DNA of 64,000 bases from a bacterium (GTDB lineage: Bacteria; Patescibacteriota; Minisyncoccia; Phycocordibacterales; UBA12088). The DNA is taken from the NCBI GenBank assembly GCA_003252295.1, contig QKEV01000008.1, positions 21,574 through 85,573 on the forward strand, written 5' to 3'. Numbering within the stretch: position 1 is the first letter of the stretch; every line of letters starts with the position of its first letter. Under the pieces are notes generated by a model. That model made no database searches. It was not told the origin of the DNA and saw only the letters and a list, made by a program, of their open reading frames with translations. Made by a program: the position numbers and the translations under genes. Shown here piece after piece: positions 8,343 through 54,548 of the stretch.

Positions 8343-10645
8343 TGACCAAAAAGCTACCTTTCTATATCTTGAGTATTTGTTTACTCGCATTTATTAATAC
8401 AAGTACCATACATGCTGAAGATGAAGCGGATCTTCAAGATGCACTTGATGGTGGTAATGTAACGGTGCCTGATTCTACTCAAGATAATCAGACAAGTGAT
8501 ACAAGTGATACAAGTGATACAAGTGATACAAATGATACAAGTGATCCTACAAAAGTGTTTATTATTGATACCGGTGTCAACGCTGCTGAGTTTAAGGATA
8601 GTGAAGGGAACGTACTTCCTATTTCAGGTACGTACAATGCTACGGATGGTAGTAGTGATGTAACAGATAATGTGGGTCATGGTACTAACATGGCAAATAC
8701 TTACGGTCAGGAGATTGGAGACGAGATACAGAGTGGGAAGGTGCAGGTGTACGTGGTGAAGGTGAGTGACTCACCTCAGATAAATGAGACTAATATACAG
8801 AACGCCTTGACATACGTGAAAGAAAACTCTGCCAGTCCTGGGGCTGATATTGTGAGTATGAGTTTTGGTTCTCCAGGTATAAACAATACGGCTGAAACAC
8901 AAGCGCTACTGAACCAGCTCAATGATGCTGGTGTGGTAGTGGTTGCTGCAGTAGGTAATGACGGTAGTATTATTACTGACACAGACAGTATAGCTGGTGC
9001 CCCAGGAGTCCTTGGTGTTGGAGCGACTACTGAAGGTGATGATAATGCTATCACTAGCTATTCAAGCGGTAGAATTACTGCGAGTGCAGATATATATGCA
9101 AGCGAGGGTCCTACTGAGTTAGGGCAAGGTACGTCAGCAGCAACAGCAAGAGCGGGAGCTATTATTGCTGGGGAGATAGCAGCAGGTAACATAACTGATG
9201 AGGATGGTAATGGTCTCATTGACTCAAATGAGGTTGAAAAGTACTTAGCGAGTGGTCAAATGGAACCAAGGTCTGATTTTAATGTGACTGACCAGGCAAC
9301 GTACCAAACGATAGCAGCAAATGGTATGACATATGATGCTGATAAAAACGTATTTATAACAGAAGCTGGAGGTGAGGTCTCACCTCTGCTTTTGGGTATA
9401 AGTGATGACCCTACGGCAATAGAGGAAAACATGGAGTACTACGGTGATCAGGTAAAATCAATGTCTGCCGAGGATCTTGAGTTTGCTAAAAAGATAGGTA
9501 TGGCTCCTCTTTTGTATAACGAGGCTGTAAAACCTGCTCTTGATGACACTGGGTTTGCACCAAGCTTCTCTTCTACACAGGAACTAAAGGGTTACAAAGA
9601 TACGAATTTAGCAGCTGCTGGGTATGACTATGATCCTATCGCTGATACTTGGACAAATTATGATACAGGTGATGTTATTGCTGATAATGATCTTGATGCA
9701 ATGAACTATAGTGAGTTTGTCGAGACGATGCGAGAATCTAAACTCGAAAATCTTGGACTTGAAGAAACAACACAAGGTTGGGTGGATGGAGATGGAGTAG
9801 TTGTTATTCCAGCAAGTGAGAGTTTGGCAACGATGAGTGAAGGGGATTTCAAAACTTACGTACTTGCTGCGGGTGGCGATATCGGAGATAGTACGTTCTA
9901 TGACCCTTTTCCTTACACTCTTGATAATAAGGAAATCAACTTGGCATATGCTGGTTTTAAGTACAACACGTTCACTGATTCCTGGGAACCAGATACCTCA
10001 ACTGACAAGGGTATAGCGCTTGATGCTGCAGGTATCGATTCCTACTCTACTGAAGAAATAGTTGCTATGAGCGATGTTGAATTCACTGCACTCATGAGTG
10101 AAGCAGAACTTGCTGCAGATGGTTACACACCAAGTCCTGATATTGCAGGTGTTTGGGTGAGTGCTGATGACCCAGATGACATGATGACCATAAGTCCTAC
10201 AACAGGTTACGCGGTGCCGTACACAGCAGGGTCAACAGGTACCACAGGCGGTTCAACAGGTAGTACAGGAACAACAGGAAGCAGTAAAGGTTTAGTAAAT
10301 TGTGGTGGTACAAGCAATGGGGGATTTAAGGAGTGTGGCTTGTGTGACCTTACCACAACAGCAGCGAATGTATTAAACTTTTTAGTAGTAGCAACAGCTA
10401 TCATAGCAACACTCCTCTTCATTAATGCAGGCGTACTCTACCTCTTTTCAGCAGGAAACCCTGGCAGTATCGCAAAGGCGCATAAGATCTTTGTTAATAC
10501 ACTTGTTGGTTTTATTATTGTCCTTGCTGCATGGCTTATTATCAACCTTCTTATGGCATGGTTCTTTACTGGAGATCTATCCAAGGTTTTGCCTGGTGAT
10601 TGGAATACTGCACTCTGTCCTGGTAGTGGAGTTGTTGCACCATAG
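8343..10645 (+). CDS. Secreted subtilisin-like serine protease (S8) with D/T/S repeat linker and C-terminal two-helix membrane anchor
   Basis: Signal peptide MTKKLPFYILSICLLAFINTSTIHA. Catalytic triad context FIIDTGV (Asp), GHGTNMA (His), GTSAATARAGA (Ser). The C-terminus has the Cys motif CGGTSNGGFKECGLCDL followed by two hydrophobic helices. The in-frame ATG at 8210 belongs to an upstream extension that is probably not translated. Confidence 0.8.
8497..8550 (+). repeat. Tandem 9-bp repeat (gatacaagt)x~5, encoding (DTS)n
   Basis: agtgatacaagtgatacaagtgatacaagtgatacaaatgatacaagtgat. It is in-frame inside the subtilase gene. Confidence 0.8.
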
Positions 10646-24511: not shown

Positions 24512-24745
24512 TATAGAATTTATTCATTTGGATGAAGTTCGAGGCATCGAGGAAGCATTAGCTTGAGTTACACCACAAGGGTGCTTCATTTTTCTAATTC
24601 GTTCCTCATAAGAAAAATTAGTCGTACTAAACGTATTGTGAAAGTTATACTAACGAAGATAACAAAGAAATTCACCGAATGAATAGGTTCTATTGGTGGA
24701 GAGTAAAGCTAAACATAAACACAATACTACCGTATACTTACTAGT

Positions 24746-26695
24746 ATGAATGGACTTTCTATACGAAGTCTGATGAAGGATCATAACGTACCTGAAGATG
24801 AGCGCGTAACGTACTTTGGTGTCACAGACAGTAGAAACAGGATGCAACCGTTTGGCATAAAACGGGAGGATAGATCTCGTCATACCTACGTTATCGGAAA
24901 GACGGGAATGGGAAAATCTACGCTCCTCGAAAACATGGCAGCCCAAGATATTTTAAACGGCGAGGGTCTGTGTTTTATTGATCCGCATGGTGGTTCTGTT
25001 GAGATGATGCTCAACTACATTCCTGAAGATCGTGTGAAGGATGTGTTGTACTTTGCACCATTTGATATGGAGTATCCTATTTCCTTTAATGTGCTAGAGG
25101 ATGTTGATGCCGACAAGCGCCATTTGGTGGTAGCTGGACTCATGAGTACCTTCGAGAAGATATGGGTAGATGCTTGGAGTTCACGTATGGCATACATTTT
25201 GCAGAATACACTTGCAGCACTTTTGGAGTTCCCAGGAGCAACCTTACTTTCGGTAAACAGGATGTACATTGATAAAGAGTACCGAAAAAATGTTATAGCA
25301 AACATTACTGACTCATCAGTACGTTCGTTTTGGGTGGATGAGTACAGCAAGTACACAGATAGGTATGCACAAGAGGCAACACCTGCTATTCAGAACAAGA
25401 TTGGTCAGTTCTCTTCAAATGCACTCGTGCGAAACGTAATAGGGCAGCCGCACAGTTCCTTTGATATCCGTAAACTCATGGATGAACGAAAAATCTTTTT
25501 GGTAAATCTTTCAAAAGGGCGCATTGGTGAGGGTAACGCAAACCTGCTCGGTAACATGCTCATTACCAAGATCTACCTCGCTGCTATGAGCAGAGCTGAT
25601 GCTGCGCCGAGAGAGATGAAGGTACTCCCGCCGTTCTATCTTTTTGTTGACGAGTTTCAAAACTTTGCAAATCGAAGTTTTGCTGACATTCTCTCAGAGG
25701 CACGTAAGTACAAGCTTGCACTTACCATAGCACACCAGTACGTGGAGCAAATGGACGAGGAGGTGCGTGCTGCCGTGTTTGGAAACGTTGGAACAATGAT
25801 GACGTTTCGTGTAGGAGCGTACGATGCCGAGGTACTTGAAAAGGAATTTGCTCCAGTCTTCACAGCTGATGACTTGGTGAACCTTGGAGCTCGTCAGATA
25901 TACCTCAAGCTCATGATAGATGGTATTTCTTCAGCACCGTTCAGTGCCCGAACCTTGCCACCTGTTGAGGAACCTGAGGTGAGTCATAGGGACAGAGCCA
26001 TGGCATACTCACGGTCACTCTATGCTCAGCCACGTGGAGAAGTAGAAGCCCGTATCTCTGAATGGGTAAACATGAAGTATGAGGATCCTGAGAAGGACGC
26101 TAAAGATGCAGCACGTGCACAAAGAAGAGCAGAACGTGATAGGGATGAGAGAGGAGGTGGTAATAATGGCTTTGGTAACAATGGTGGACGTACGCCAAGA
26201 CGAAACGGTGAACAAAAGAAAAACGCAGAGAATAGTGACGAGTATAAAAAAGACCTACGTAATCTCCTCAAGAAAATGACACATGATACGAAGGGAGAGG
26301 TAAAAGGTAGTACTCCTCAGAAAGTAGTATCACAAAAGGTAGTGAACGAAGACAAGAAGGGTATATCTTCGCAAGAAAAAAGACCATTATCGAAACCTGC
26401 AACAACCTTTGTTCCCAAAAAAGATGATGGTAAGGGGATAACCGATGAGGGAAAGTCAGAGTTGCGAAACCTGTTGCAATCACTCACCAAGAAAACTCCT
26501 CAAAAGGAAGAGAGACAAGGTGAGAGTGCTGTAGGAGAAAAGGTGTCAAAAAAAGAATCTACTAAAGAGCAGGAATCAAAACAAGCGGAAGAGAAAAAGG
26601 AAGCAAGTGTTGCAAAGCACCGTATTGCTCCAATAGAGATACCAAAAGAAAAACTAGATGAGATGCTTCATGTAGATAAACCTAATCTTGAGTAG
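24746..26695 (+). CDS. P-loop ATPase of the TraG/VirD4/HerA (AAA_10/DUF87-like) superfamily with a long disordered K/E/R-rich tail
   Basis: Walker A HTYVIGKTGMGKSTLLENM. Walker B follows ~250 aa later (LFVDEFQNF). Then KYKLALTIAHQ (sensor/arginine region) and a low-complexity C-terminus (GGGNNGFGNNGG, KKE repeats). Confidence 0.5.
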   Translation: MNGLSIRSLMKDHNVPEDERVTYFGVTDSRNRMQPFGIKREDRSRHTYVIGKTGMGKSTLLENMAAQDILNGEGLCFIDPHGGSVEMMLNYIPEDRVKDVLYFAPFDMEYPISFNVLEDVDADKRHLVVAGLMSTFEKIWVDAWSSRMAYILQNTLAALLEFPGATLLSVNRMYIDKEYRKNVIANITDSSVRSFWVDEYSKYTDRYAQEATPAIQNKIGQFSSNALVRNVIGQPHSSFDIRKLMDERKIFLVNLSKGRIGEGNANLLGNMLITKIYLAAMSRADAAPREMKVLPPFYLFVDEFQNFANRSFADILSEARKYKLALTIAHQYVEQMDEEVRAAVFGNVGTMMTFRVGAYDAEVLEKEFAPVFTADDLVNLGARQIYLKLMIDGISSAPFSARTLPPVEEPEVSHRDRAMAYSRSLYAQPRGEVEARISEWVNMKYEDPEKDAKDAARAQRRAERDRDERGGGNNGFGNNGGRTPRRNGEQKKNAENSDEYKKDLRNLLKKMTHDTKGEVKGSTPQKVVSQKVVNEDKKGISSQEKRPLSKPATTFVPKKDDGKGITDEGKSELRNLLQSLTKKTPQKEERQGESAVGEKVSKKESTKEQESKQAEEKKEASVAKHRIAPIEIPKEKLDEMLHVDKPNLE

Positions 26696-28139
26696 AATGT
26701 TCTGGCGTAACGGTACAATCTTGCTGTTTACCTTACTTTTTACCCCTCTTGTTACAAATGCCTCAGTGTATATTTCTGAAGTTGCTTGGATGGGTGATAG
26801 TGATAATGCAAATGCAGAGTGGATAGAGCTTTACAATGATGGCGTAGAAGTTGATTTGTCAGAATGGACACTCACTGCAAGTGATGGTCAGCCGAGTATT
26901 GTGCTCACTGGTGTGCTTGGGGTAGATAGCTACGCGCTTCTCGAACGTACAAGCGATGAGACGGTTCCATTTCAGCCAGCTTTCATGGTGTACAGTGGAG
27001 CGCTCGGTAATACGGGGGAGTTACTTGAGCTACGTGATCAGAACGGAGTATTGGTGGATAGTGTTGATGGAAGTGATGAGTGGAGTATCGGAGGTAATAA
27101 CGATACGAAAGAAACATTGCAACGCTCTGGTAATCCACCGATTGGTACTTGGATAACGAGCACCCCAACGCCACAAGGTAGTGAACCTATTAGTGTTTCA
27201 AATGATGATGATGCTAATGAGGTGAGCAGTGCAGCACGGTCATTAAGTGCAGGTGGAAGGGTAATCTACGGAAAAGAAAGTGATGACGATGATGAAGTAC
27301 ATTTAGAACCAGCACTTATTTTAACTATTGGTGATGACCGTACGGTAACGAGAGGTGTACCGGTCACCTTCAGTGCAAAGACTTACACAGAACATGGGAG
27401 AGAACGGGTCATTGATACTGTTCAGTGGAGTTTTGGTGATGGGGCAGTTGCTGAGGGTAGAGAGGTTACTCACGAGTACAACTATACGGGTGATTACGTG
27501 GTTGCTGCTAGAGCAGTGCGTGGTGGCTTCATGGAAGAGATAACTGATTCAGATTCAGTGGTTATTCATGTAGTAGAACCGACCGTTAGCATAGTGCAGG
27601 CAAGTGGTGACTTTGTAGAGGTAAAGAATAACGGAAGGGAACGGTATGACCTTTCTGGTCATATTCTCACAACAGAGACTGCACACTTCGTGGTGCCGGA
27701 GAATACCTACATACTGCCGAATGCATCGGTGCGGTTTTGTAGAGAGTATACTGGGGTACATGGTAGTGCTGTTACCTTGCGATACCCTGGTGGTGAGGTG
27801 TTGAGTACCTATGCAACCACCGAAGAACTCGCTCCTGTGACACCAGTTGTCACGAAAGAGTACAGGGAGTTGGGTACCGTTGTGGAAGAAAAGAGTGTAC
27901 CTACCACTGAACAAGAGCTAGATGAAGTAGTATACCTACCCAGTGAAATAGCTGCAGTAGCACATGCTTACGATGGGGAGGTGTTCAGTTCGGGAGATGG
28001 TAGTACTGAACAGTCGCCCTGGTGGTGGATTCTTGGTCTATTTACCGCTATAGTAACTGTTATTGTCGTAACGCTCTTGGTGCGTCATGAGGAACAGGAG
28101 GTGATAGAAGGGTTTGTTATAGAAACAATTGATGGCTAA
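26688..28139 (+). CDS. Lamin-tail-domain (LTD) protein, secreted with C-terminal TM anchor
   Basis: ISEVAWMGDSDNANAEWIELYNDGVEVDLSEWTL is the LTD signature. A second LTD-like block follows (FVEVKNNGRERYDLSGHIL). The C-terminal TM is WWWILGLFTAIVTVIVVTLLV. Confidence 0.7.
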   Translation: MSRMFWRNGTILLFTLLFTPLVTNASVYISEVAWMGDSDNANAEWIELYNDGVEVDLSEWTLTASDGQPSIVLTGVLGVDSYALLERTSDETVPFQPAFMVYSGALGNTGELLELRDQNGVLVDSVDGSDEWSIGGNNDTKETLQRSGNPPIGTWITSTPTPQGSEPISVSNDDDANEVSSAARSLSAGGRVIYGKESDDDDEVHLEPALILTIGDDRTVTRGVPVTFSAKTYTEHGRERVIDTVQWSFGDGAVAEGREVTHEYNYTGDYVVAARAVRGGFMEEITDSDSVVIHVVEPTVSIVQASGDFVEVKNNGRERYDLSGHILTTETAHFVVPENTYILPNASVRFCREYTGVHGSAVTLRYPGGEVLSTYATTEELAPVTPVVTKEYRELGTVVEEKSVPTTEQELDEVVYLPSEIAAVAHAYDGEVFSSGDGSTEQSPWWWILGLFTAIVTVIVVTLLVRHEEQEVIEGFVIETIDG

Positions 28140-28151: not shown

Positions 28152-29033
28152 ATGGAAAACAAAAAAGTAATACTTGTAACGGGTGGTGCAGGGTTTGTGG
28201 GAAGTCATCTCGTGGAGGCGCTCGTTAGTGATGAGAACAACCAGGTTATTTCACTCGACAACTATTTTACCGGTTCAAAGGAGAACCATGTAGAGGGTGC
28301 TGAGTACCGTGAAGGGCATACCAAGGATATTGCCATGTTGGTACCTGAGCAACCTGACATCGTGTACCATCTCGGTGAGTACTCACGCGTTCGGCAAAGC
28401 TTAGATGAGCCGGATGTGGTGTGGGACCTCAACATGGCTGGGACACTTGCGGTGCTTGAGTACTGGCGTGAGAAAAAGTGTAAGCTGGTGTACGCCGGTT
28501 CAAGTACGAAGTTTACCGATACACGAGAGGACGGTGTCGAGGGGAGAAACCTTGCACCGTACACATGGGCAAAAGCTGCGACCACAGACCTCGTGGTGAA
28601 CTACGCTCGATGGTACAATCTTTCTTTTGTGAACACGTACTTTTACAACGTGTATGGTCCGCGAGAACTTGGTGGCAAGCATGGTACGGTGATACCAATA
28701 CTTTTAGATAGGTACAGAAAGGGAGAACCGCTCACTATTGCGAGCCCTGGAACACAAGAGCGTTGCTTTACCCATGTACTCGACACGGTAGATGGCATAC
28801 TCCTTGCTGCCAAGAAGGGTGAGGGTGATGGGTACGGTATTGGAACAGATGAAGTACATTCACTCTTGGAACTTGCTGAGATGATAGGAGGAGAAATAGA
28901 AATGTTGCCACAGACGAAGAGTACCCGTTCCTCAGACATTGTTGATTCAGAAAAAGTAAAAGCTCTTGGCTGGAAACCACGGCACACCCTCAAAGACTAC
29001 ATAGATGAGGTGAAGGGAAATATTGACATGTAA
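28152..29033 (+). CDS. NAD-dependent sugar epimerase/dehydratase (extended SDR)
   Basis: VILVTGGAGFVGSHL Rossmann motif. The YxxxK region is conserved. It is shorter than GalE, resembling a UDP-sugar decarboxylase or epimerase. Confidence 0.8.
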   Translation: MENKKVILVTGGAGFVGSHLVEALVSDENNQVISLDNYFTGSKENHVEGAEYREGHTKDIAMLVPEQPDIVYHLGEYSRVRQSLDEPDVVWDLNMAGTLAVLEYWREKKCKLVYAGSSTKFTDTREDGVEGRNLAPYTWAKAATTDLVVNYARWYNLSFVNTYFYNVYGPRELGGKHGTVIPILLDRYRKGEPLTIASPGTQERCFTHVLDTVDGILLAAKKGEGDGYGIGTDEVHSLLELAEMIGGEIEMLPQTKSTRSSDIVDSEKVKALGWKPRHTLKDYIDEVKGNIDM

Positions 29034-29094
29034 ACTAATACATCGTACTCTCGTGGTAGGTTTTCAACATTAAAAACATACAAGGAGGTGTTCT

Positions 29095-29574
29095 GTGGAT
29101 CTGTTTTCAAGAAAGACTCAGGGTGGGACTATCTACATACCGCCACTATGTAAGGTGAAGGTTGTTGATGACAGTATGCAGTTTCGTTACAAGTTGCCAA
29201 CAGGTGGAAAATTAGCACTTTGTGTTGCACCGCAATATGGGAAGGCAGACAAAGAAGGTCATTTTCACAAAGGTTTGGTTGAAGTGTACACGGTTCATTT
29301 GGGCTGGCTCGAAATAATCTTTCAGGATGCTTCGGGTGGTGAAATAGAACATACGGTTGTTGAACCGTACGGCACCAGTTGTTCGTTCGTTGCGTCAACA
29401 GGTATGAGGCATGCGATCATACAGGGACCAGAAACAGTGTTTGTTGTACAAACCATCGCAAATCATAAGCCGGTACCTAATCCAGAGAAGAATGGGAATG
29501 ATTGGTATCCTGCCGAAGAAAAGTTTAATGAACTTGTTCGCGAACACTTTCGTGTCCGAGGGTACGATATGTAA
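29095..29574 (+). CDS. Cupin-fold protein, possibly sugar 3,4-ketoisomerase-like (FdtA/WxcM type), tentative
   Basis: 159 aa with an HFHKG...E...H pattern. Its position is between a sugar epimerase and glycosyltransferases. Confidence 0.35.
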   Translation: MDLFSRKTQGGTIYIPPLCKVKVVDDSMQFRYKLPTGGKLALCVAPQYGKADKEGHFHKGLVEVYTVHLGWLEIIFQDASGGEIEHTVVEPYGTSCSFVASTGMRHAIIQGPETVFVVQTIANHKPVPNPEKNGNDWYPAEEKFNELVREHFRVRGYDM

Positions 29575-29631
29575 TTTTATAACACCCCTACGTGTGCTAT
29601 GTGCACGTAGGGGTGCTTGTATCAATAAAAT

Positions 29632-30834
29632 ATGCGGAATGGTATACTACTCTTCATGAAAAAACGCATACTACTGTTTTCTCTCGCATACTACCCGAGT
29701 CATGTTTCTGGAGCTGAGGCTGCAGTACGAGAGATTACTGACAGAATAAAACCTGAAGAAATTGAATTTGAACTTATTACCCACTGGTTTGATAAGTCAC
29801 AACCGAGGGAGGAAAAAATAGGGAACGTACTCGTGCATCGAGTGGGGGTGAGTGCGAACTACCTTTCAAAGATACTTTTTGTATTTCTTGCTGTACGTAC
29901 AGCACAGAGACTGCACAAAGAGAAACCATTTACCGGCATGTGGGCACTCATGACGTACATGCTCTTCCCGCTTTCACTCGCGCGAATGTTTGGCATGAAG
30001 CTTCCGTACGTCATTACGCTACAGGATGGTGATGCGTATGAGAAAGTGTTTGAGCGGTGGTTCATTAAGCCGTTTGCATGGATACTCGACTATGGTTTTA
30101 GGCATGCGACGGTGGTACAAGCAATATCAAACTATCTTGCTGAGTGGCCAGCAAAACGTGGTAGTGATGTTCCTGTGGAGATGATACATAACGGTGGTAA
30201 CCCACGGGACTTCATACGTGACCTCTTTAGTAAGGAGGAGATAGAAGACGCACGAAAAGGGATAGGTGTACTGGAAGGTGAAATACTTATAGGTAACACT
30301 GCTCGCTTGGTGTACCAGAAAGGGTGGGAAGACACCATTACTGCACTCTCACAGCTTCCAGAAAAGTACAAAATGCTCATCGTTGGTGGCGGGGAAGATG
30401 AAAAGAAGTACAGGGAGTTGGTGAAGAAACTTTCACTCGAGAGCAGAGTAATTTTTATTGGACAGGTAGACAGGAGTGAAGTGACCAGGTACCGAAGAAT
30501 GCTTGATGTGTTCGTTATGCCGAGCAGGTCAGAAGGCTTGGGTAATGCGGGACTCTCAGCTATGGCGAGCAAGATCCCACTCATTGCAACGCAAGAGGGT
30601 GGACTCGCTGAGTACGTGTTTGATGAGAAGAGAAATCCTGGAGTTCCGGCAACAGCCTGGGCGGTAGATAGGGATAGCCCAGGACAGATAGCAGAGACCG
30701 TGCAGTACATCATTGATCATCCGGAGAAACGGCAAAAGGTGGTGACCACAGCGTACGACATGGTGTCACGAAAGTACCGTTGGGATTCCATTGCGAAAGA
30801 TATGCAGGAGAAGGTGTTTTCTAAAATTACGTAG
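29632..30834 (+). CDS. Glycosyltransferase family 4 (GT-B)
   Basis: The C-terminal GT4 region has EGLGNAGLSAMASKIPLIAT. An alternative start is at 29656 (MKKRILLFS). Confidence 0.8.
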   Translation: MRNGILLFMKKRILLFSLAYYPSHVSGAEAAVREITDRIKPEEIEFELITHWFDKSQPREEKIGNVLVHRVGVSANYLSKILFVFLAVRTAQRLHKEKPFTGMWALMTYMLFPLSLARMFGMKLPYVITLQDGDAYEKVFERWFIKPFAWILDYGFRHATVVQAISNYLAEWPAKRGSDVPVEMIHNGGNPRDFIRDLFSKEEIEDARKGIGVLEGEILIGNTARLVYQKGWEDTITALSQLPEKYKMLIVGGGEDEKKYRELVKKLSLESRVIFIGQVDRSEVTRYRRMLDVFVMPSRSEGLGNAGLSAMASKIPLIATQEGGLAEYVFDEKRNPGVPATAWAVDRDSPGQIAETVQYIIDHPEKRQKVVTTAYDMVSRKYRWDSIAKDMQEKVFSKIT

Positions 30835-30835
30835 T

Positions 30836-31387
30836 ATGTTCAACGCACCAACACTAGTAGAGAAGGCGGTACGAGTGGCGACAGTAGCCCATAGTGGTCA
30901 GGTGCGGAAAAGTGATGGGTCTCCCTACATAGTGCATCCATACATGTGTGCACTGAAGCTCATGCAGTACGATTGCTCTGAGGAGGTGGTAGCCGCTGCA
31001 CTCACCCATGATGTACTAGAGGATACTGCCATAACCGAAGATGAGCTTCGACTCATACTTGGTAACGCAGTGGTGGATATTGTCACACATGTTTCAGAGG
31101 ATAAGAGGAAGGAATGGGAGGCAAGGAAAGAAGACTATGTAGAGATGGTGCGCAATGCTCCTCTTGAGGTAAAGCTCGTGAGTATTGTCGACAAGATACA
31201 CAACATGGAGAGTGTCCTCTTTGCTCATGAAAAAGATGGTGAAAAGATATGGAGTGTGTTCAACAAGGGAAAGGAAAAGAAATTGTGGTTTGAGGAGTTG
31301 TGCTTGAACATGTTCAAAGAGACACTGGAGCATCCACTCGTAGCCGAGTATGAGAAGCTCGTCGAAAAGATGCGAACTCTGATGTAG
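30836..31387 (+). CDS. HD-domain protein resembling (p)ppGpp hydrolase / small alarmone hydrolase
   Basis: AHSGQVRKSDGSPYIVHPYMCA...AALTHDVLEDT is the RelA/SpoT-type HD motif. The start overlaps the upstream stop by 1 nt. Confidence 0.7.
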   Translation: MFNAPTLVEKAVRVATVAHSGQVRKSDGSPYIVHPYMCALKLMQYDCSEEVVAAALTHDVLEDTAITEDELRLILGNAVVDIVTHVSEDKRKEWEARKEDYVEMVRNAPLEVKLVSIVDKIHNMESVLFAHEKDGEKIWSVFNKGKEKKLWFEELCLNMFKETLEHPLVAEYEKLVEKMRTLM

Positions 31388-32476
31388 CTAGTGCAGGTTC
31401 TTCTGTCGTTCAACTTCTTCCGTATCACGCAATCTATCGCGTGTTTTTTTGTATCCTTCTACGATGTTTGAATCGACTGTGGTGTTGTTGAGTTGTGCTT
31501 CAAGTACCCGTGACCAAAACTGTACACGTTCCTGTGTGAGAGTGGTGAGGTTGCCTTCAGTTTTTTCAAGCTTACTTGCGTAAAACCAGATGAGTTCGAG
31601 GAGTCGGTATATACGCATGAGCCGAAGTGATTCTAGTTCCCCCTTACTTCTGTTGTTTGCTACGTACTCATGTAGGGCTCGTTCGAGAGATGGATTATGA
31701 AGCGTCATGAAGTTCATGAGCCGTGCCCAACCTTCGTACTTGTTACCAAAGCGGATAGCAGTATGGTCAAGCAGGTAGATATCTTGCTCATGTACACGGA
31801 TGTTGTGGGGAACAAAGTCCCAGTGTGTAAGAAAGTTTGAGTATAGGTCGAGTATCTCTGAACCACTCTCAAGAGCTTCTTGTGCACGACGGAGTAGTTC
31901 AGTAAGTTCTGTCTTTTCTTTGAGCAGGCCGGACGTTTCTTGTACGAATGACTTTGCGTTTTCTAGATAGCGATCACTAGTGTATAGCTCAAAAACTTTC
32001 CGTATATTTTTGATGTGCCCGTACGTTGTTGCATGCGAACCTTCCTGAGCTTCCAGTGCCTTGAGTGCAAGGAAGAACTGCTCCTCTAGACTTCGTTCGA
32101 GAAAAGTTTTTTCCTGAGGTATGAACTCAGTGATGTAAAAGGTGTAGACACCATGCTTACCAAAGAGTATCTCTTCTGGTGAGTAGAAGGTGTTGTATGC
32201 AAAACGAATTTTCCTGAGCATGTCATGTGCTGCTCGTTCTTTCTCAAGTTCCTGGGCTATGGTGCTGTTGCTTGTAATCTTTATGATTACTTGCTTACCA
32301 GTTGTCGTTTGTGCGCCATAGAGTACGAGTTTTTCTCCAGAAAGGATGTAGCGTTCACCTTGTATGTGTGGTTGCTCGCTCGCAAGCTCAAACCCTTCAT
32401 CCAAGAGGAGTGGAGTGACTTCTTGAAGGTGTTGCTGGCAGTATGCTTCCCATTTTTCTTTTTGACTATCACCCAT
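31388..32476 (-). CDS. Protein-kinase-like / aminoglycoside-phosphotransferase-fold kinase
   Basis: Catalytic-loop HWDFVPHNIRV (HxDxxxxN) and a DxG-type LLDHTAIRFG. The start was chosen at the Met 2 nt after the upstream GT stop. The longer ORF to 32587 overlaps that GT. Confidence 0.5.
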   Translation of the reverse strand: MGDSQKEKWEAYCQQHLQEVTPLLLDEGFELASEQPHIQGERYILSGEKLVLYGAQTTTGKQVIIKITSNSTIAQELEKERAAHDMLRKIRFAYNTFYSPEEILFGKHGVYTFYITEFIPQEKTFLERSLEEQFFLALKALEAQEGSHATTYGHIKNIRKVFELYTSDRYLENAKSFVQETSGLLKEKTELTELLRRAQEALESGSEILDLYSNFLTHWDFVPHNIRVHEQDIYLLDHTAIRFGNKYEGWARLMNFMTLHNPSLERALHEYVANNRSKGELESLRLMRIYRLLELIWFYASKLEKTEGNLTTLTQERVQFWSRVLEAQLNNTTVDSNIVEGYKKTRDRLRDTEEVERQKNLH

Positions 32477-33614
32477 GATGTATTTTATTAAACGTATCAT
32501 TGAGTATCTGAATATGTTTGTCCCATGAAAATGTTTTCTCGAATACTTTCTTTGCATTACCTGAAAGTTCTGCAGCAAATGATTCATCCTCTAGGATTTC
32601 CAAAAGCATTTCTGCAGTGATATTGGCATTTGCTGGTTGTGTGAGGAGTCCTGTTTTTTCATGCATTATTCCCTCACGTATTCCGGGGACATGAGGTACA
32701 ACGACAGGTACACCATTTTGAAATGCTTCGTAGAGAAGCTCTGGTGTTTCCGCGTACGCTGCAGTAGAGAGAAAAGCACTTGCTGTTTGTAAGTGGTAGA
32801 GCTTTTCTGCTCGCGACACCTCACCAAGTAGGAGAACATTCTTTTCAAGTGAGAGCTCACGTATACTGTCCTCAAGTGCAACACGTTCTTCTTTTCCTCC
32901 GCCTGCTATGACAAGTTGCGCGTCTTCATGTACTCCACACACTTTTTGCATTGCTCTTAATGCTGTTGGTATATCTTCCCATGGAAAGAGAGAAGCTTTC
33001 ATGAAAACCTTGTTGCGTTGCTTCTTTTCAGTGAAGGGGAGGGAGAGTGGTTTGCGTGGAGCAGGGTTGAGGACACTAACACGGGTGTTCTGAAGCCCAT
33101 GTGTTCGGGTGAGGTCATCACATATGAACTGTGATGGTGCGAGTACATGTCTAGCATGCCGAAGTACGTACTGTTGTGTATGCCAAACTCCCCAGACACC
33201 ACCAGGTATCTTTTGCAGTTTTCGAAATGCACCTTGATGAATAGGGGCGGTGTCGGTATGGAGAAATCGCTCCCATGCTTCGTCCTCTGTGTAGTGTACG
33301 ATAACAGGCGTTTTGGTAAAACGTCCTGCCAGTACCGCAGGTAGTCCTGCAGCAACAGCTCGTTCTGTATAGATAATGTCTGCGCTTCGCGCCAGTTGCG
33401 TGAGGGTACGTGTGTAGTGAAAGAGTCGTACAAAAAGAGGAGTGTTCTTCTTTACTGTTTTTATCTCTACTCCCGCAATGGTTTCTATATGGTTTGCGTA
33501 GGTAAGTATAGTTATCTCATGGCCTTCTTTGAGATGCAGAGCAAGTTCCTGTATATACTGAGCTGAGTCACCAGTTTCAGGTGGGAAGAGTGGTGTTGCG
33601 ATAAGTATTTTCAT
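32469..33614 (-). CDS. Glycosyltransferase family 4
   Basis: MKILIATPLFPPETGDSAQY N-terminus. GT4 C-terminal motif. Confidence 0.8.
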   Translation of the reverse strand: MKILIATPLFPPETGDSAQYIQELALHLKEGHEITILTYANHIETIAGVEIKTVKKNTPLFVRLFHYTRTLTQLARSADIIYTERAVAAGLPAVLAGRFTKTPVIVHYTEDEAWERFLHTDTAPIHQGAFRKLQKIPGGVWGVWHTQQYVLRHARHVLAPSQFICDDLTRTHGLQNTRVSVLNPAPRKPLSLPFTEKKQRNKVFMKASLFPWEDIPTALRAMQKVCGVHEDAQLVIAGGGKEERVALEDSIRELSLEKNVLLLGEVSRAEKLYHLQTASAFLSTAAYAETPELLYEAFQNGVPVVVPHVPGIREGIMHEKTGLLTQPANANITAEMLLEILEDESFAAELSGNAKKVFEKTFSWDKHIQILNDTFNKIHHG

Positions 33615-39926: not shown

Positions 39927-40536
39927 TTACAAACCAAGTTTACTGTACATTATTAAAGCGAGGCTCAAAGGAAAGAGTTTTGTGTATGAGTACTACTGTA
40001 AGGGTAAGAATACCTTGGACCTCGGATGTGGTGAGGGAGAGTTTTTACAACATGATAAGGAAAACATGAATGGGGTTGATCTCAACAAACGAGCTATAGC
40101 GAGGTTAGAGAGTGAGGGGTATAAGGTGAAGGAGGGAAGTGTTACAGACTTACCATATGAGAGTAATACCTTTGAAGTGGTCCATTGTCACAATGTTATT
40201 GAGCATGTTGATATAGCTACCGCATATACACTCCTTGAAGAAGCTAACAGGGTACTTAAAACTGGTGGGTATCTAGTACTTTCTTCTGAGGTAGTAACGA
40301 AAAAGTTTTGGGATACTTTTGGACATGTAAAACCATACCCACCTCATGCAGTGATAAAACTTCTGCGACCAGATAGTAGAGAAGGGTTTGATGGGGTAGA
40401 GGGTTTTGAACCAGTCGGTTTGTTTTATATAGGGGAGTACTTTAAGAATAAGGTGCTGTACCTACTCTCTTTTTGTCTTGGGTATCTAACACCTCTTTTG
40501 CGAAGAGAGTATTTCTTGGTTTTAAGAAAGCAGTAA
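39892..40536 (+). CDS. Class I SAM-dependent methyltransferase
   Basis: LDLGCGEGEF (motif I) ... VVHCHNVIEHV. Confidence 0.75.
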   Translation: MTFLKILNMKNSYKPSLLYIIKARLKGKSFVYEYYCKGKNTLDLGCGEGEFLQHDKENMNGVDLNKRAIARLESEGYKVKEGSVTDLPYESNTFEVVHCHNVIEHVDIATAYTLLEEANRVLKTGGYLVLSSEVVTKKFWDTFGHVKPYPPHAVIKLLRPDSREGFDGVEGFEPVGLFYIGEYFKNKVLYLLSFCLGYLTPLLRREYFLVLRKQ

Positions 40537-41490
40537 TTGAGATATATGAGGCAGATTTCATACGTGATTCCAGTTTACAATGAAGAAGATACTTTATCAG
40601 AATTGTATAAGGAACTTTCTAAGGTGCTTGAAAAGATTGAGTGTATTTTTGAATTGATTTTTATAAATGATGGTAGTACAGATAGTTCATTAAAAATATT
40701 AAAAGAGCTTCAAAAAGGTGACCCAAGAATAGTTATAGTAGAATTTTCAAGGAATTTTGGGCACCAGATAGCAATTACCGCTGGAATTGACTATGCGCAG
40801 GGGGATGCAGTTATTGTGATGGATGGAGATTTGCAAGATCCTCCTACTGTAAGTTTGAGATTTATTGAAGAGTGGGAAAAAGGCGCTGAGGTGGTATATG
40901 GACAAAGAAGAACCAGAAAGGACACTTGGTTTAAAGAAAAAACAGCCAATTTGTTTTATAAGGTTTTAAACTTACTTTCTGATGTAGAAATACCTCAAAA
41001 TACTGGGGATTTCAGATTGATGGACAGAAAGGTGGTTGAAGTTATAAAACAAATAAGAGAACATAATCGTTTTATGCGTGGTCTCTCTAGTTATGTTGGT
41101 TTTAAACAAAAAGCTGTTTTATTTGATAGAGATGAGCGTTACGCGGGTGTGACTCACTATCCACTTAAGAAAATGATCAAGTTATCACTTGATGCGATTA
41201 TTGGTTTTTCGACAGTACCACTTAAATTGATTAGTAGACTGGGGTTTGTTGTTTCTGGGTTAAGTATTTGTGGAATTGTATATGCTTTATTTATGAAGTT
41301 TTTCTATGCATCAATTACAGTTTCTGGATGGACCTTTCTTGTAATCTCAATCTTCTTCTTAAGTGGTATACAAATGATAATACTTGGGGTAATAGGAGGA
41401 TACTTGGGAAGAATCTATGACGAGGTTCGAAATCGTCCGCTTTATATTATTTCTCGTGTGAGTCGTGGAAAAAGTATCGAAAGCATCTAA
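40537..41490 (+). CDS. GT2 polyprenyl-phosphate glycosyltransferase (GtrB/DPM1/ArnC-like) with C-terminal TM helices
   Basis: ISYVIPVYNEEDTL...INDGSTDSS...DGDLQDPP (DxD), plus two C-terminal hydrophobic helices. Confidence 0.85.
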   Translation: MRYMRQISYVIPVYNEEDTLSELYKELSKVLEKIECIFELIFINDGSTDSSLKILKELQKGDPRIVIVEFSRNFGHQIAITAGIDYAQGDAVIVMDGDLQDPPTVSLRFIEEWEKGAEVVYGQRRTRKDTWFKEKTANLFYKVLNLLSDVEIPQNTGDFRLMDRKVVEVIKQIREHNRFMRGLSSYVGFKQKAVLFDRDERYAGVTHYPLKKMIKLSLDAIIGFSTVPLKLISRLGFVVSGLSICGIVYALFMKFFYASITVSGWTFLVISIFFLSGIQMIILGVIGGYLGRIYDEVRNRPLYIISRVSRGKSIESI

Positions 41491-41491
41491 T

Positions 41492-43222
41492 ATGAAGCAC
41501 TTTATTTCGTACTCGCTAATCGGTGTTGTTGGAGCAACATTAGATTTTGTTTTGTTTTTGTTACTTTTGCGTATCGGTATATATTATCAATTTGCAAATT
41601 TTTTTAGTACTTGTGCAGGTATTTTTAATAATTTTTTTCTTAATTCTTACTTTAATTTTAAAAAAACGGATAAATTATTACTCCGACTCGCAAGCTTTTT
41701 TAGTGTTGGACTTTTAGGTCTTGCAGTAACTACTTTGTTGCTTGCATTTTTTGTGGGTGTGCTTGACCTTAATGCTGGTTTTGTTAAATTTTTTTCAATT
41801 GGAGTTATTACTGTAGTGCAGTTTACACTCAATAAACATATTACTTTTCGTAACAGAAAAAAAGTACCTCAAGGAATTCCACGAGGGCATGTTGCGATAA
41901 TAGGGGGTGGTTTTACAGGACTTGTTGCTGCATACGAACTTTCAAAGTATGAACATATACAGGTAACTTTATTTGAGGGAGGTAAAGAAGTTGGTGGGTT
42001 GGCTGCATCAACAAAAATAGAGAATGAGTCAATTGAGGCGGCTTACCATCACACATTTATGGGTGACAAGGAACTCAAAAGACTTTTAATAGAACTTGGG
42101 ATAGAAAAACAAATGCAATGGTTACCAAGTAGTGTAGGGTTATATGTTGGAGGTACAATGTATTCTTTCATGGGAGCTATCGATTTACTCCGTTTCAAAG
42201 CATTGCCTTTTTTTGATCGTTTACGTACAGGTGTTATTTCAGTTATGTTACAGATGTTGCCATGGTGGGAATGCTTAACTACTCAAAAGGCATATACCTG
42301 GGTCTATCGTTGGTATGGAAAACGAGCAAGTCAAGTTATATGGGGTCCACTATTGCAGGCAAAATTTTCTACATACTATAAAGATATATCCATGGCGTGG
42401 CTTTGGGCACGATTACATAGCCGTGGCGCTTCACGGAAAAATATTTTTTCAAAGGAGCTACTCGGTTACCCTAAAGGCGGGTACCAAGTAATCGTTGCAG
42501 TTATTGTTGAAGAGTTACAAAGGCGTGGGGTAAATATTTTGACGAATGCACAAATTACTTCTGTAGATAATACTTCAGTTGAATATGGTGGTATAAGCAC
42601 TAGTTTTGACAAGATACTTTTTACCACCTCATCAAAGGTTGCTTCTCAACTTATCAAACCATCAGTTATTAGTAAAGAATATAGATGGTACAAGGAAAAG
42701 TTGAGCTCAATCCATTACATTTCTGCCGTGACACTTTTATTTTCTTCAACTCAAAATATAAGTTCATATTATTGGAATACTGTTGCTGACGATTCAATTC
42801 CATTTCTTGTTTTTATTCAGCATACCAAACTTGTGTCTAAGGGTAACTATGGTGGTAATCATGTATATTATATTGGATCATATCTTTCTAATAATGATAA
42901 ACAATTAACAATGAAAGATGAGGAGTTGATTAATTATTGGTTTTTGGGTTTAAAGAAAATGTTTCCTCATTTTGATCGTTCGTGTGTAAGGGAGAAACAG
43001 TTATTTCGTTTTTCGAATGCACAACATGTCGTTGACACTTCTTATGTATCGCGTATACCTTCTTATCAAACTCCGCTCCCAAATGTATTTATTGCAAACT
43101 TTTCTCAAATTTTTCCTGAGGATCGTGGTATAAATTATGCTGTACGAGAAGGTAAACGTGTTTCTGAATATATGATAAATTCTTTAACTGAACAAAAAGA
43201 TACTAATGATATAAAGGGATAA
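41492..43222 (+). CDS. Fusion protein: GtrA-like membrane domain + NAD(P)/FAD-dependent oxidoreductase (amine-oxidase/UGM-like fold)
   Basis: The N-terminal ~130 aa have 4 TM helices with the GtrA-family pattern (SYSLIGVVGATLDFVLF...). Then VAIIGGGFTGLVAAYEL (GxGxxG) follows. It is a paralog of 47648..49228. Confidence 0.65.
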   Translation: MKHFISYSLIGVVGATLDFVLFLLLLRIGIYYQFANFFSTCAGIFNNFFLNSYFNFKKTDKLLLRLASFFSVGLLGLAVTTLLLAFFVGVLDLNAGFVKFFSIGVITVVQFTLNKHITFRNRKKVPQGIPRGHVAIIGGGFTGLVAAYELSKYEHIQVTLFEGGKEVGGLAASTKIENESIEAAYHHTFMGDKELKRLLIELGIEKQMQWLPSSVGLYVGGTMYSFMGAIDLLRFKALPFFDRLRTGVISVMLQMLPWWECLTTQKAYTWVYRWYGKRASQVIWGPLLQAKFSTYYKDISMAWLWARLHSRGASRKNIFSKELLGYPKGGYQVIVAVIVEELQRRGVNILTNAQITSVDNTSVEYGGISTSFDKILFTTSSKVASQLIKPSVISKEYRWYKEKLSSIHYISAVTLLFSSTQNISSYYWNTVADDSIPFLVFIQHTKLVSKGNYGGNHVYYIGSYLSNNDKQLTMKDEELINYWFLGLKKMFPHFDRSCVREKQLFRFSNAQHVVDTSYVSRIPSYQTPLPNVFIANFSQIFPEDRGINYAVREGKRVSEYMINSLTEQKDTNDIKG

Positions 43223-43226
43223 TTGT

Positions 43227-44888
43227 ATGTTATTTGATTTTGGTTCAATTAAAAAACATGGAATGATCGTCACCTTTCTTTTTGTCTGGACTTGCCTACA
43301 TGTGGTTGGTGTTACTTATGGTACCCATAATCTTCCATTACACCAGTCATATATAGGAGATGAACAAGCTCCAGTAAATGGTGCTTTGCATATCTTGCAA
43401 GATAAAAGTTTGTTAGCTGTACACAATTTAAAAACCTTATACTATGGTCCAGTTTTTGCGGTCTTTGCGTTACCAGCTGTAGTATCTGATTTTACTGTAC
43501 GGTTTGTGACAGGTGAGGTTTCTGGTGCTGATGATTATAAAAATTTTATTTTGTGGAATTGGGGAGGAATAGTTCTTGGTATACGGATTACAGCAACACT
43601 GGTAAGCTTAATGACTCTCATATTTGTGTACAAAATATTGTCCTTAGAAAGTATTAATGAAAAGAAGGATATGTTATTAGCTTTTTTTGGTACAACAATC
43701 GTTGGTTTAAATTTTTATTTTTTTGAATATTCACATTTTTTTAAACATTGGGTCTTTGTGATTTTCTTTTTGGTGGCACAAATATATTTTGCATTACGTT
43801 TACGTGAGGTAGATGGTAAAAGAAGTATCTACTGGATTTTGCATGGTATATGCTTTGTTTTAAGTTTCGGTATTAACTATTTGAGCGCTATATACGCAAT
43901 AGCTTTTCTACCACTACTTTATCTTTTGTGGATTAAAAAAGATAAAGTAGCAAGAAAATATATCTACCTTTATGTGGGTGGTGTGTCATTTACATCATTA
44001 CTAATATTGTTGTGGCATCCCTATGCCTTTTTAAGATATTTAGGTTTTTTAAATATAGGTGATGTAACTTCAGGAGGTGTTGGGAATACCTATAATCCGG
44101 TAACCTCCGTGGATAATTCATGGGGGTATTACTTAACAGAAATATTTTTCAATAATCTTCCTTTAGTTATTGGTGTATTAATTTTGCTATACTTACTGTA
44201 TAAAAGAGGTGTTATAAAAAAACAACTCTATTGGTTGTGGATGTTTATAAGCATTGCTTTAATAAACATGTTAGTCTTCTGTCCATCAACACATCATGAA
44301 GGGAGGTACATGCTTCCAACTATTATGATGTTACTTTTGTTGACAGGTGTTGCGTTGGTTAAATTTATAAACAATATCAAAAATCACGAGTTAGTGATCT
44401 TTCGTTTAGTATCTCTATTGTTAATTTTATATATTGGTTTTCATGTTGTGCATATCGGAAAATGGATAGAAATATATGCCCAAGGTCCGGTTGAAAAAGA
44501 GATATTAAAAGAAATATTTGAAAGGCAGGAAAAAAATGAAGACTTGTCTACAAATCCCGTTTTGCTTATACAGTCATATATTGCAGGTAATGTGCATACC
44601 AAAGAAGCATATGAGTTTTATATTGAAAAGAGGGGACGTGAAGATATGAATTTATATAAAGCGATAATGTCTGCACCACTCCCTGATAATATAGATTTAC
44701 TAAATGCACGTTATGTTTTTGATCAAGATCTACCTCAGGGGTATTTAGAAATTTCTGAATATGAAATGGTGTACCAGTATCTTACACCTAGATCTAAGGA
44801 ACTTAACTTGTTTGATTATTTTGATGAGAATCTGTTGAGACTTTGGTATTGGAAAAGTTTTTCTCCAAGGTATGTAAGAATAAAGTAA
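43227..44888 (+). CDS. Polytopic membrane protein, probable GT-C glycosyltransferase (ArnT/PMT-like)
   Basis: About 12 TM helices. There is an N-terminal loop with GDEQ (DE-type motif). Its position is after the GT2 + GtrA genes. Confidence 0.5.
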   Translation: MLFDFGSIKKHGMIVTFLFVWTCLHVVGVTYGTHNLPLHQSYIGDEQAPVNGALHILQDKSLLAVHNLKTLYYGPVFAVFALPAVVSDFTVRFVTGEVSGADDYKNFILWNWGGIVLGIRITATLVSLMTLIFVYKILSLESINEKKDMLLAFFGTTIVGLNFYFFEYSHFFKHWVFVIFFLVAQIYFALRLREVDGKRSIYWILHGICFVLSFGINYLSAIYAIAFLPLLYLLWIKKDKVARKYIYLYVGGVSFTSLLILLWHPYAFLRYLGFLNIGDVTSGGVGNTYNPVTSVDNSWGYYLTEIFFNNLPLVIGVLILLYLLYKRGVIKKQLYWLWMFISIALINMLVFCPSTHHEGRYMLPTIMMLLLLTGVALVKFINNIKNHELVIFRLVSLLLILYIGFHVVHIGKWIEIYAQGPVEKEILKEIFERQEKNEDLSTNPVLLIQSYIAGNVHTKEAYEFYIEKRGREDMNLYKAIMSAPLPDNIDLLNARYVFDQDLPQGYLEISEYEMVYQYLTPRSKELNLFDYFDENLLRLWYWKSFSPRYVRIK

Positions 44889-44924
44889 AGACACTTTTTA
44901 GTATATGATATTTATTTAATTTTT

Positions 44925-45848: not shown

Positions 45849-45986
45849 ATTAATCAACATTTTTAAATTCCTTATTCTCTATATAAGAGCTTTAAAATAA
45901 GAGGAGATAACAGAAAGCGGTTATGGACACTTCTTGTTTTTGTTATGTGGTGGAAAAAATGGGTGAAAAAAAACGATTAAAGTGTT

Positions 45987-47027: not shown

Positions 47028-47054
47028 ATTCTCTATCCTATCATAATAATGTCC

Positions 47055-47492: not shown

Positions 47493-47647
47493 GTACCTAC
47501 AATAATAATATATTTACAGTATGTTAACTACGTTTTATATGTAATTTCTATGATTGAGTATGAGTTTAGATGGAACTATAAGGATGGTATACTGGAATTA
47601 TTAAAGCAGTAAGCCAAATTCTAAGCTAATTCGGAATATTTATCATT

Positions 47648-50678: not shown

Positions 50679-50723
50679 TTAATTATATACCTAGAAATTT
50701 CTTTTTCAGTTACATGTTACAGT

Positions 50724-51785: not shown

Positions 51786-51795
51786 TAGAAAAAAT

Positions 51796-52446: not shown

Positions 52447-52453
52447 GAAACGA

Positions 52454-53164: not shown

Positions 53165-53173
53165 AAAATTAGA

Positions 53174-54430: not shown

Positions 54431-54548
54431 GTATGGTAATTATAACCATAAAATATACATAAAAGTTGTGTAAATAACATATGTGACAACAGTAGTTTTT
54501 ATGTATCTTTGTTTTGTTATTAAAAGTAACAAATGATACAATCTGCAA

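Follow-up and report, generated by a model that had tools for sequence, protein, structure and literature searches.

Orphan coupling proteins, that is VirD4-like type IV coupling protein (T4CP) homologues encoded away from virB4, are already a published feature of the Patescibacteria. According to the survey by Quinonero-Coronel et al. 2025 (PMC12102498), 5,713 VirD4-like T4CPs occur in 2,918 genomes of the phylum and 148 of them lie near virB4; relaxases are rare in these bacteria, T4CP genes of ordinary systems are themselves often located far from virB4, and 'exaptation cannot be ruled out'. In the pIP501 system the T4CP TraJ lacks a transmembrane (TM) segment, and the membrane protein TraI has been proposed as its anchor (PMC12857230). 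The Patescibacteria represent a large share of bacterial diversity and live attached to other cells; in one strain tested, type IV secretion system (T4SS) genes are essential, and no substrate, relaxase or dedicated coupling protein was identified there. Here, a 64-kb stretch of contig QKEV01000008.1 (the window), which is a chromosome segment of a Paceibacteria-type member of the Patescibacteria (Candidate Phyla Radiation, CPR), is analyzed with respect to a gene for an anchor-less ATPase of the VirD4/TrwB family and the gene that follows it, encoding a surface protein with lamin-tail (LTD) and PKD domains ( Table 1 ). The ATPase is almost certainly one of the homologues counted by Quinonero-Coronel et al. 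(PMC12102498), most of which are encoded away from virB4. The passages of that survey that were searched make no mention of an LTD-PKD neighbor, of a DUF8128 partner or fusion, of an anchor-less short form, of tail motifs or of the level of conservation.

The two open reading frames (ORFs) proposed in the initial annotation, 24746-26695 and 26688/26697-28139 on the forward strand, are both present as described. A word-indexed search matched the ATPase to at least 8000 protein clusters, the best 120 of which were all 72-86% identical to it, and an exhaustive search recovered 22,397 clusters (50% identity) at E <=1e-3 and 5,952 at E <=1e-30. Given these thousands of clusters, and the orthologues of the ATPase and of the LTD gene found in hundreds of contigs, both genes represent more than chance ORFs.

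Sequence profiles, the match to TrwB and the predicted fold jointly assign the ATPase to the VirD4/TrwB coupling protein family. The protein exceeded the Pfam gathering cut-offs of TrwB_AAD_bind (30.9 bits against 20.5, over aa 41-356), T4SS-DNA_transf (28.1 against 20.1) and TraG-D_C (24.4 against 22), and its best sequence match in the PDB was TrwB (aa 39-338, E 1e-5), with which both Walker B and a downstream RK...Q motif align. The Walker A motif GKTGMGKST and the distant Walker B motif VDEFQNF noted at the outset are present, and their key residues (G51, K52, G54, M55, G56, K57 and S58; V301, D302, E303, F304, Q305 and F307) are invariant in 64 homologues, as are R320, K321, Y322, H330 and Q331 of the RK...Q motif. 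An AlphaFold2 (AF2) model built with 64 homologues has a confident core at aa 10-370 and 400-470; its top Foldseek matches were DotL, HerA-NurA, TrwB and Cagbeta (~1e-10), and it also resembles the VirB4 C-terminal domain, the DptH/DndH C-domain and HerA-Sir2. Seven helices with a predicted local distance difference test score (pLDDT) of ~90 are inserted in the model between strands 100-103 and 250-254 of the nucleotide-binding domain (NBD). This insert (aa 122-232) is the predicted counterpart of the T4CP all-alpha domain, a feature shared beyond T4CPs, given that the VirB4 C-terminal domain likewise has a helical insert. The predicted fold points to the VirB4/T4CP/HerA clade, and within this clade the sequence profiles pick out the T4CPs. 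The likenesses to T4CPs (VirD4/TrwB/TraG/TraD; PF10412, PF02534, PF12696), namely the Walker A/B NBD, the RK...Q motif aligning with TrwB, the helical insert and the predicted resemblance to TrwB, DotL and Cagbeta, bear out the TraG/VirD4-like label that the protein was first given.

The accompanying HerA-like label holds for the fold similarity to HerA but not beyond it, since DUF87 scored just under its own Pfam cut-off and the ATPase has neither a HAS barrel nor a NurA or Sir2/DUF4297 partner. The VirB4 family model and CedD, an archaeal DNA-import ATPase, gave only weak matches of 17 and 21.8 bits, respectively, both over the P-loop region. Neither an FtsK_SpoIIIE Pfam match, nor an N-terminal TM domain, nor a gamma domain was found in the ATPase, and the match to an FtsK-type paralogue that the initial annotation had named as a contrary outcome was not realized. 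Replacement of FtsK was considered as a candidate function and rejected on the grounds of the missing profile match, a lower fold score and the report of FtsK in Saccharibacteria TM7x.

Departures from the T4CPs begin at the N-terminus. No 19-aa window with a mean hydropathy of >=1.6 occurs anywhere in the ATPase and Walker A is reached already at aa 51, hence the canonical N-terminal membrane domain is absent, as it likewise is from some accepted T4CPs such as pIP501 TraJ (PMC12857230). The ATPase also differs in having no relaxase, VirB4 or T4SS linkage over the 64 kb, in being vertically inherited, chromosomal and more conserved than MurC and MurD, and in scoring below the TraD/VirD4 equivalog cut-offs. 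Annotation of all window ORFs of at least 120 aa with Pfam, complemented with NCBIfam, recovered no VirB4, VirB6, relaxase, integrase, pilus-assembly or competence gene; the VirB4/VirB6, type IV pilus and competence genes that had been sought as partners of a transfer module are thus missing from the window. The sole other T4SS-related gene in it (8210-10645, +) encodes an 811-aa protease-pilin fusion. After an N-terminal signal or TM segment this protein has a subtilisin-like Peptidase_S8 domain at aa 114-320; a long region rich in Asp, Thr and Gly then leads to a T4SS_pilin domain (PF18895) at the C-terminus, which contains two TM helices (aa 714-781).

The C-terminal tail of about 200 aa, described initially as a low-complexity region, is indeed rich in K, E, D and R (K 17%, E 12%) and predicted to be disordered, with pLDDT <50 over most of aa 476-627 in the AF2 model, but it is not purely of low complexity, as three short conserved helices are predicted along it. 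The LRxxL pattern of the first is visible in the consensus of 64 homologues, and in the second L573 is invariant and L577 at least 90% conserved in the same number of homologues. The third is a C-terminal peptide with the family consensus E-[VI]-P-E-[DE]-x-L-[RK]-x-[LI]-L, which occurs as a strict pattern in 68 of 77 orthologues, in relaxed variants in at least L001 and L002, and is absent from L058 and L064; tail length across the 77 proteins ranges from 93 to 384 aa. This peptide is kept both with and without an LTD neighbor. Three predicted amphipathic helices on a flexible linker carry the signature of docking peptides for a putative partner. A C-terminal extension that ends in a short conserved peptide recalls the tail of F TraD, which binds TraM.

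Loci related to the window bear labels that include Parcubacteria, Kaiserbacteria, Taylorbacteria, Zambryskibacteria and Paceibacterota, and on this basis the window is assigned to Paceibacteria-type Patescibacteria. Synteny of the ATPase locus was found in 80 of 80 species-representative loci, with the conserved order MurD – MurC – … – RsmI-like – DUF4015 – ATPase – [LTD] – [epimerase] – GT4 – GT4. The DUF4015 gene lies directly 5' of the ATPase gene in 58 of the 71 loci with upstream room, and a GT4 gene lies 3' of it in 67 of the 80. Median identity of the NBD is 72.8%, a value somewhat inflated by the choice of the 80 loci as best ATPase matches, against 48.9% for DUF4015, 43.0% for MurD, 42.7% for MurC, 35.7% for GT4 and 29.8% for LTD. 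Selection bias cannot account for a 30-point gap in such diverged genomes, and the NBD is more conserved than each neighbor in every paired comparison. Fixed synteny together with high conservation indicates that the ATPase gene is a vertically inherited chromosomal core gene, not a mobile or defense gene. It is under extreme purifying selection.

The following gene encodes, as first annotated, an LTD surface protein that bears a TM helix near its C-terminus (aa 445-465). Its profile match lies above threshold (Pfam PF00932, 58.8 bits against a cut-off of 34.3, in two stretches), and an N-terminal export signal, a PKD domain (PKD_4, 39.7 bits against a cut-off of 27) and a second LTD-like domain were found in addition. 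The 8-nt overlap with the ATPase gene that had been reported holds only from an alternative TTG start at 26688; because the public gene call begins at ATG 26697 and orthologues align from its signal peptide, only 1 nt lies between the TAG at 26693-26695 and the start of the LTD gene. The architecture common to all LTD orthologues comprises signal peptide, LTD, acidic linker, PKD, second LTD-like domain, linker and TM helix, with Thr/Ser/Pro/Glu-rich linkers in the protein studied here. Throughout 32 orthologues an N-terminal segment ending in A or G precedes a conserved SEVAWMG / TEIMYD start and the PKD residues W, F, G, D and G are invariant; the orthologue alignment also contains the second-domain block IE..N....DLS.W.L...F.IP..T......LLYPNG. 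A cytosolic end motif, E-A-[DE]-x-[FY]-x-I-[IV]-E, is found in most of the orthologues and is absent from L015, L024, L026, L058 and L064. A single-sequence AF2 model of the protein reached a pLDDT of 36. The orthologues L040:4240-5673, L043:5669-7156 and L052:11824-13389 have the first LTD swapped for another N-terminal domain (VQKFVFVS...) and keep the PKD, second domain, TM helix and cytosolic motif. Searches with Pfam and NCBIfam found no HhH domain, ComEC channel or ComFA helicase in either protein or in the window, and a literature search retrieved no paper tying LTD to DNA uptake, to competence or, of relevance here, to CPR biology.

Co-occurrence of the two genes was assessed in both directions, and the pair is conserved. 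In the forward test, an iterative profile search placed an LTD orthologue directly 3' of the ATPase gene in 42 of 75 evaluable species loci, with gaps mostly of -28 to +35 nt. Where LTD is lacking, a GT4 gene directly follows the ATPase gene, except in L066, in which the nearest recognized gene is the second GT4, ~2 kb downstream. The reverse test was based on 80 metagenome loci found with a 9-sequence LTD alignment, 53 of them with upstream room, and placed the ATPase directly 5' of LTD in 44 of the 53; when the loci were de-duplicated at 90% nucleotide identity, this held for 31 of 38 clusters. Fitch parsimony on a neighbor-joining tree of the NBD reconstructed the midpoint root as paired, with ~5 changes, apparently LTD losses by whole clades, suggesting that the pairing is ancestral in the Paceibacteria. 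It is thus old and persistent, yet dispensable, and the LTD gene is probably co-transcribed with the ATPase gene. Seven LTD-PKD clusters without an upstream ATPase have mixed neighbors (L103, L114, L116, L121/L123, L125/L126, L129 and L141), with the downstream GT4 pair retained in L125 and L126; they are either paralogues or rearranged loci.

A different membrane partner accompanies the ATPase in another lineage. Approximately one third of the top representative matches carry the NBD behind an N-terminal extension of 300-450 aa with a TM segment, which precomputed annotation identifies as DUF8128 (PF26449). A Pfam scan of the long forms P0188, P0200 and P0212 gave no PF26449, which the precomputed annotation of their homologues lists. 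In many Patescibacteria DUF8128 also exists on its own, in a membrane protein of about 450-500 aa, and 100 of 120 DUF8128 proteins carry an N-terminal TM-like segment. In four of four loci (L163 and L167-L169, whose source labels read Komeilibacteria, Nomurabacteria or unclassified) the DUF8128 gene lies directly 5' of an ATPase orthologue with a 58% identical NBD. Fusion and adjacency together constitute Rosetta-stone evidence for DUF8128 as the cognate membrane component in these lineages. The context in L163 (8001-12792), L167 (4511-9636) and L168 (4484-9646) is SecD – SecF – sigma-like – DUF8128 – ATPase – pyrimidine-nucleoside phosphorylase, followed by NUDIX in L167 and L168 and by MnmA in L163, and it may indicate a link to secretion or nucleotide salvage; L169 has only the sigma-like – DUF8128 – ATPase core in common. 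The sigma-like gene encodes a sigma70_r4/HARE-HTH protein. Stand-alone DUF8128 genes in L161/L162 (8001-9455) and L164/L165 (6001-7431) follow SecD-SecF and a 53-aa ORF, with SecA further 5' and no adjacent ATPase.

The DUF8128 operons and fusions resemble the locus described here in the orthologous NBD, in the anchor-less start of the ATPase when split, and in their chromosomal position among housekeeping genes. They differ in that the partner is an upstream, N-terminally anchored protein with a cytosolic domain, as opposed to a downstream surface protein, and in that the L163-type ATPases (homologues P0392-P0510) end in a CxxC-x17-CxxC zinc ribbon (PF23477), not in the helix peptide. A hidden Markov model (HMM) built from the 120 DUF8128 proteins gave no match in the window and none in 160 Paceibacteria-type loci (L001-L160). 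The idea of a split gene was also pursued, with the long-form N-terminal domain sought in the window and 80 loci by tblastn and later with the DUF8128 HMM, and was dropped when none was found. No paper mentioning DUF8128 was retrieved by literature search.

We tentatively favor the view that the gene is the Paceibacteria orthologue of a vertically inherited orphan VirD4/TrwB-type ATPase that would serve as an envelope hand-over motor, with the LTD surface protein paired to it. The ATPase would assemble as a ring at the membrane, recruit a macromolecular substrate (protein or DNA) and power its hand-over to an envelope channel, and the conserved tail helices would dock partners; ring assembly, NTPase activity and binding of a substrate, whether DNA or relaxase, are putative. 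The most plausible channel, and the most economical reading, would be the chromosomal monoderm-type T4SS of the phylum, encoded elsewhere. The LTD product is predicted to be a Sec-exported single-pass surface protein in which an LTD-PKD-LTD-like ectodomain is joined by a TM helix to an acidic-aromatic cytosolic tail of 18 aa, and it most likely serves in binding or adhesion at the surface. Since the ATPase itself lacks an anchor, the LTD protein is also a candidate membrane tether, a role that is speculative and is proposed by analogy with DUF8128 and with TraI-TraJ of pIP501. The latter case is alike in that a TM-less coupling ATPase adjoins a potential tether (PMC12857230); it differs in that TraI, encoded inside a conjugation operon, spans the membrane with two TM helices and lacks a large ectodomain, whereas the candidate tether here is a 480-aa surface protein that is absent in 44% of species.

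Several observations weigh against this favored view. The fold alone cannot tell a T4CP from a VirB4 C-terminal domain, and the NCBIfam scores are far under their cut-offs (SXT_TraD 44.7/366, conj_TOL_TraD 34.3/647, and conju_CD1115, a VirD4 model, 31.8/250). The T4SS is essential in S. epibionticum and its T4CP homologue was reported as non-essential (PMC12102498), and Wang et al. 2023 saw no coupling protein or relaxase in the essential T4SS cluster, so that a T4SS role of the ATPase is putative. The ATPase has no adjacent LTD gene in ~44% of species, with its tail motif unchanged, which argues that the ATPase does not depend on LTD as an obligatory partner. The LTD cytosolic motif and the ATPase C-terminal motif show no clear parallel in their losses either, both being absent only in L058 and L064, with L015, L024 and L026 mismatching. 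Finally, the gene order also retains the unrelated MurD, MurC and RsmI-like methylase genes, and the adjacency may reflect inheritance alone.

Inherited adjacency with no functional link is, in our estimate, a less probable account, in which the LTD-PKD surface (glyco)protein belongs with the epimerase and GT4 glycan genes and the role of the ATPase is unrelated. It agrees with an operon that runs on into the epimerase, GT4 and further glycan genes, with GT4 directly following the ATPase where LTD is absent, with the composition of the LTD linkers, with the fast evolution of LTD (median identity 30%, compared with 73% in the ATPase), with a tail motif that is independent of LTD presence and with synteny that also covers unrelated housekeeping genes. 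It sits poorly, on the other hand, with the position of the ATPase directly 5' in 31 of 38 independent LTD clusters, with the tight or overlapping spacing and with a pairing that appears ancestral across a deep divergence. Rather unlikely is an exaptation independent of the T4SS, in which the ATPase works with a dedicated membrane partner (DUF8128 elsewhere) in nucleic-acid import for nucleotide salvage or in the export of specific proteins. DUF8128 adjoins the ATPase in all four of the other-lineage loci, many homologues carry it fused to the NBD, the operons lie beside SecDF, continuing in three of four into a pyrimidine-nucleoside phosphorylase and then NUDIX (two) or MnmA, and the ATPase is very strongly conserved. 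The survey likewise counts 148 of 5,713 T4CPs near virB4 and leaves exaptation possible (PMC12102498). It also notes, however, that T4CP genes are often distant from virB4 in ordinary systems (PMC12102498). The exaptation account is further weakened by the failure to find DUF8128 in the window or the 160 Paceibacteria-type loci; moreover, the four loci with DUF8128 are themselves rather closely related and so amount to few independent observations. Still less probable is an extended form of this idea, in which the ATPase would be the motor of an unrecognized, phylum-wide, T4SS-independent translocation device with a swappable membrane partner (DUF8128 or LTD-PKD) and with surface sensing coupled through the cytosolic tail. 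Such a device, if real, would be a new envelope machine central to epibiotic life, serving for example in the acquisition of host nucleic acids or in protein delivery.

The proposal made in the initial annotation, a minimal DNA-uptake or transfer module in which LTD binds DNA outside and the ATPase pulls it in, now appears improbable. The ATPase does belong to a clade related to DNA translocases and has the weak CedD match over its P-loop (21.8 bits), the gene pair is conserved, and Patescibacteria rely on scavenged nucleotides. Yet the pair includes no membrane channel, the LTD protein having a single TM helix; the LTD neighbor is absent in 44% of species and orthologues of the other lineage pair with DUF8128; the literature search found no DNA binding by LTD in competence, and ComEC-based competence is already present in the phylum. 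Least probable by far is an anti-phage defense ATPase, either mad8-like of the MADS system or HerA-type, or the coupling protein of a mobile conjugative element. The PADLOC mad8 model gave 57.8 bits on aa 44-343, above every Pfam T4CP model, and mad8 may itself be a T4CP/HerA-like ATPase; the structural similarity to the DptH/DndH C-domain and HerA-Sir2 would suit a defense role, and the Pfam T4CP matches a mobile one. MADS, however, is an eight-gene operon (mad1-mad8), whereas no other mad gene lies nearby and five neighbors of the ATPase have no PADLOC match; no NurA, Sir2, Dnd partner, relaxase, integrase or VirB gene is found in the window; and the ATPase occupies a fixed position in 80 species with conservation far above that of neighboring housekeeping genes. 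Both the MADS/HerA defense and the mobile-element readings were therefore rejected, given that partner genes are missing and that the gene behaves as a core gene.

What appears to be new is the ancestral pairing with LTD-PKD in the Paceibacteria, the fusion or adjacency to DUF8128 in other lineages, a short form that lacks the anchor and carries conserved tail peptides, and the exceptional conservation of this form. The ATPase ranks among the most conserved envelope-related genes of the class, lacks the usual anchor, whether through loss or from the outset, and keeps conserved docking-type peptides. Should it serve the T4SS, the missing substrate receptor would have been identified; should it not, a conjugation motor would have found a new use. 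Experimental handles are provided by LTD-PKD and DUF8128 as candidate membrane partners, by the C-terminal peptide and by the clade-wise presence or absence of LTD.

Housekeeping genes identified by Pfam in the window include those for a ValRS/IleRS-type tRNA synthetase, TsaD, MurD, MurC, an RsmI-like methylase and MurB. The 234-nt intergenic gap 5' of the ATPase gene is compatible with the start of an operon; the promoter call made there is weak and not significant alone, since only 3 such sites occur in the region against 13 expected in shuffles. The epimerase, 159-aa protein, GT4 and HD genes downstream of LTD are probably the rest of the ATPase/LTD operon, their same-strand gaps being 12-61 nt where the genes do not overlap.

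Table 1. Features of the ATPase and LTD-PKD locus, in window coordinates
Feature	Position	Strand	Basis or remark
DUF4015 putative glycoside hydrolase, 485 aa	23054..24511	+	Pfam DUF4015, 276 bits
Promoter-like hexamers TAAACA-17-TATACT	24710..24738	+	8 nt 5' of ATPase ATG; consensus scan, weak
Anchor-less VirD4/TrwB-family (T4CP-like) ATPase, 649 aa	24746..26695	+	
Walker A / P-loop GKTGMGKST, aa 51-59	24896..24922	+	Sequence
All-helical insert in NBD, aa 122-232	25109..25441	+	AF2 model
Walker B VDEFQNF, aa 301-307	25646..25666	+	Sequence; aligns with TrwB LFIDEL
RK...Q motif ARKYKLALTIAHQ, aa 319-331, aligned with TrwB GRKAGLRVVAGLQ	25700..25738	+	phmmer against 1e9r/1gl6
K/E-rich disordered (predicted) C-terminal tail, aa 450-649	26093..26692	+	AF2, composition
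Tail helix motif 1 DLRNLLKKM, aa 503-511	26252..26278	+	AF2 helix 498-512
Tail helix motif 2 ELRNLLQSL, aa 572-580	26459..26485	+	AF2 helix 567-581, pLDDT ~78
C-terminal peptide EIPKEKLDEML, aa 631-641	26636..26668	+	AF2 helix 634-641, pLDDT ~79
LTD-PKD surface protein, 480 aa from ATG 26697	26697..28139	+	Public gene call
Signal peptide MFWRNGTILLFTLLFTPLVTNA	26697..26762	+	Hydrophobic window aa 8-26
Lamin-tail domain 1	26757..27068	+	Pfam PF00932 best stretch, aa 24-127 (TTG numbering)
PKD domain, invariant WxFGDG	27324..27515	+	Pfam PKD_4 and PKD, aa 213-276
Second LTD-like beta domain, limits approximate (inferred)	27579..27812	+	Second Pfam LTD stretch and conserved block
Single C-terminal TM helix WWWILGLFTAIVTVIVVTLLV, aa 445-465	28020..28082	+	Hydropathy windows aa 440-465; position conserved
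Cytosolic tail RHEEQEVIEGFVIETIDG, 18 aa, acidic-aromatic end	28083..28136	+	Positive residues after TM
Epimerase (NAD-dependent), 159-aa unknown, GT4 glycosyltransferase, HD-domain protein	28152..31387	+	Pfam
Terminator-like hairpin and T-run, CACGCAATCTATCGCGTG TTTTTTT	31426..31443	+	Scan; between convergent genes

A surface-glycan cluster occupies positions ~28000-62000 of the window and contains at least nine GT4/GT2 glycosyltransferases, two epimerases, a sulfotransferase, an FkbM methyltransferase, a Wzx-like flippase, a Wzy_C+TPR protein and GtrA fusions. Its GC content dips at 40000-59000, falling to 0.30-0.38 against ~0.43 elsewhere, and this suggests that the glycan island is variable or exchanged horizontally. 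Within it, the HD-domain gene (30791-31387, +) is convergent to a gene (31388-32587, -) for a 399-aa protein without a Pfam match that gave a weak Bud32-like kinase match of 18.5 bits. Both genes were matched in the related loci L005, L006 and L078, and the 399-aa gene alone in L004.

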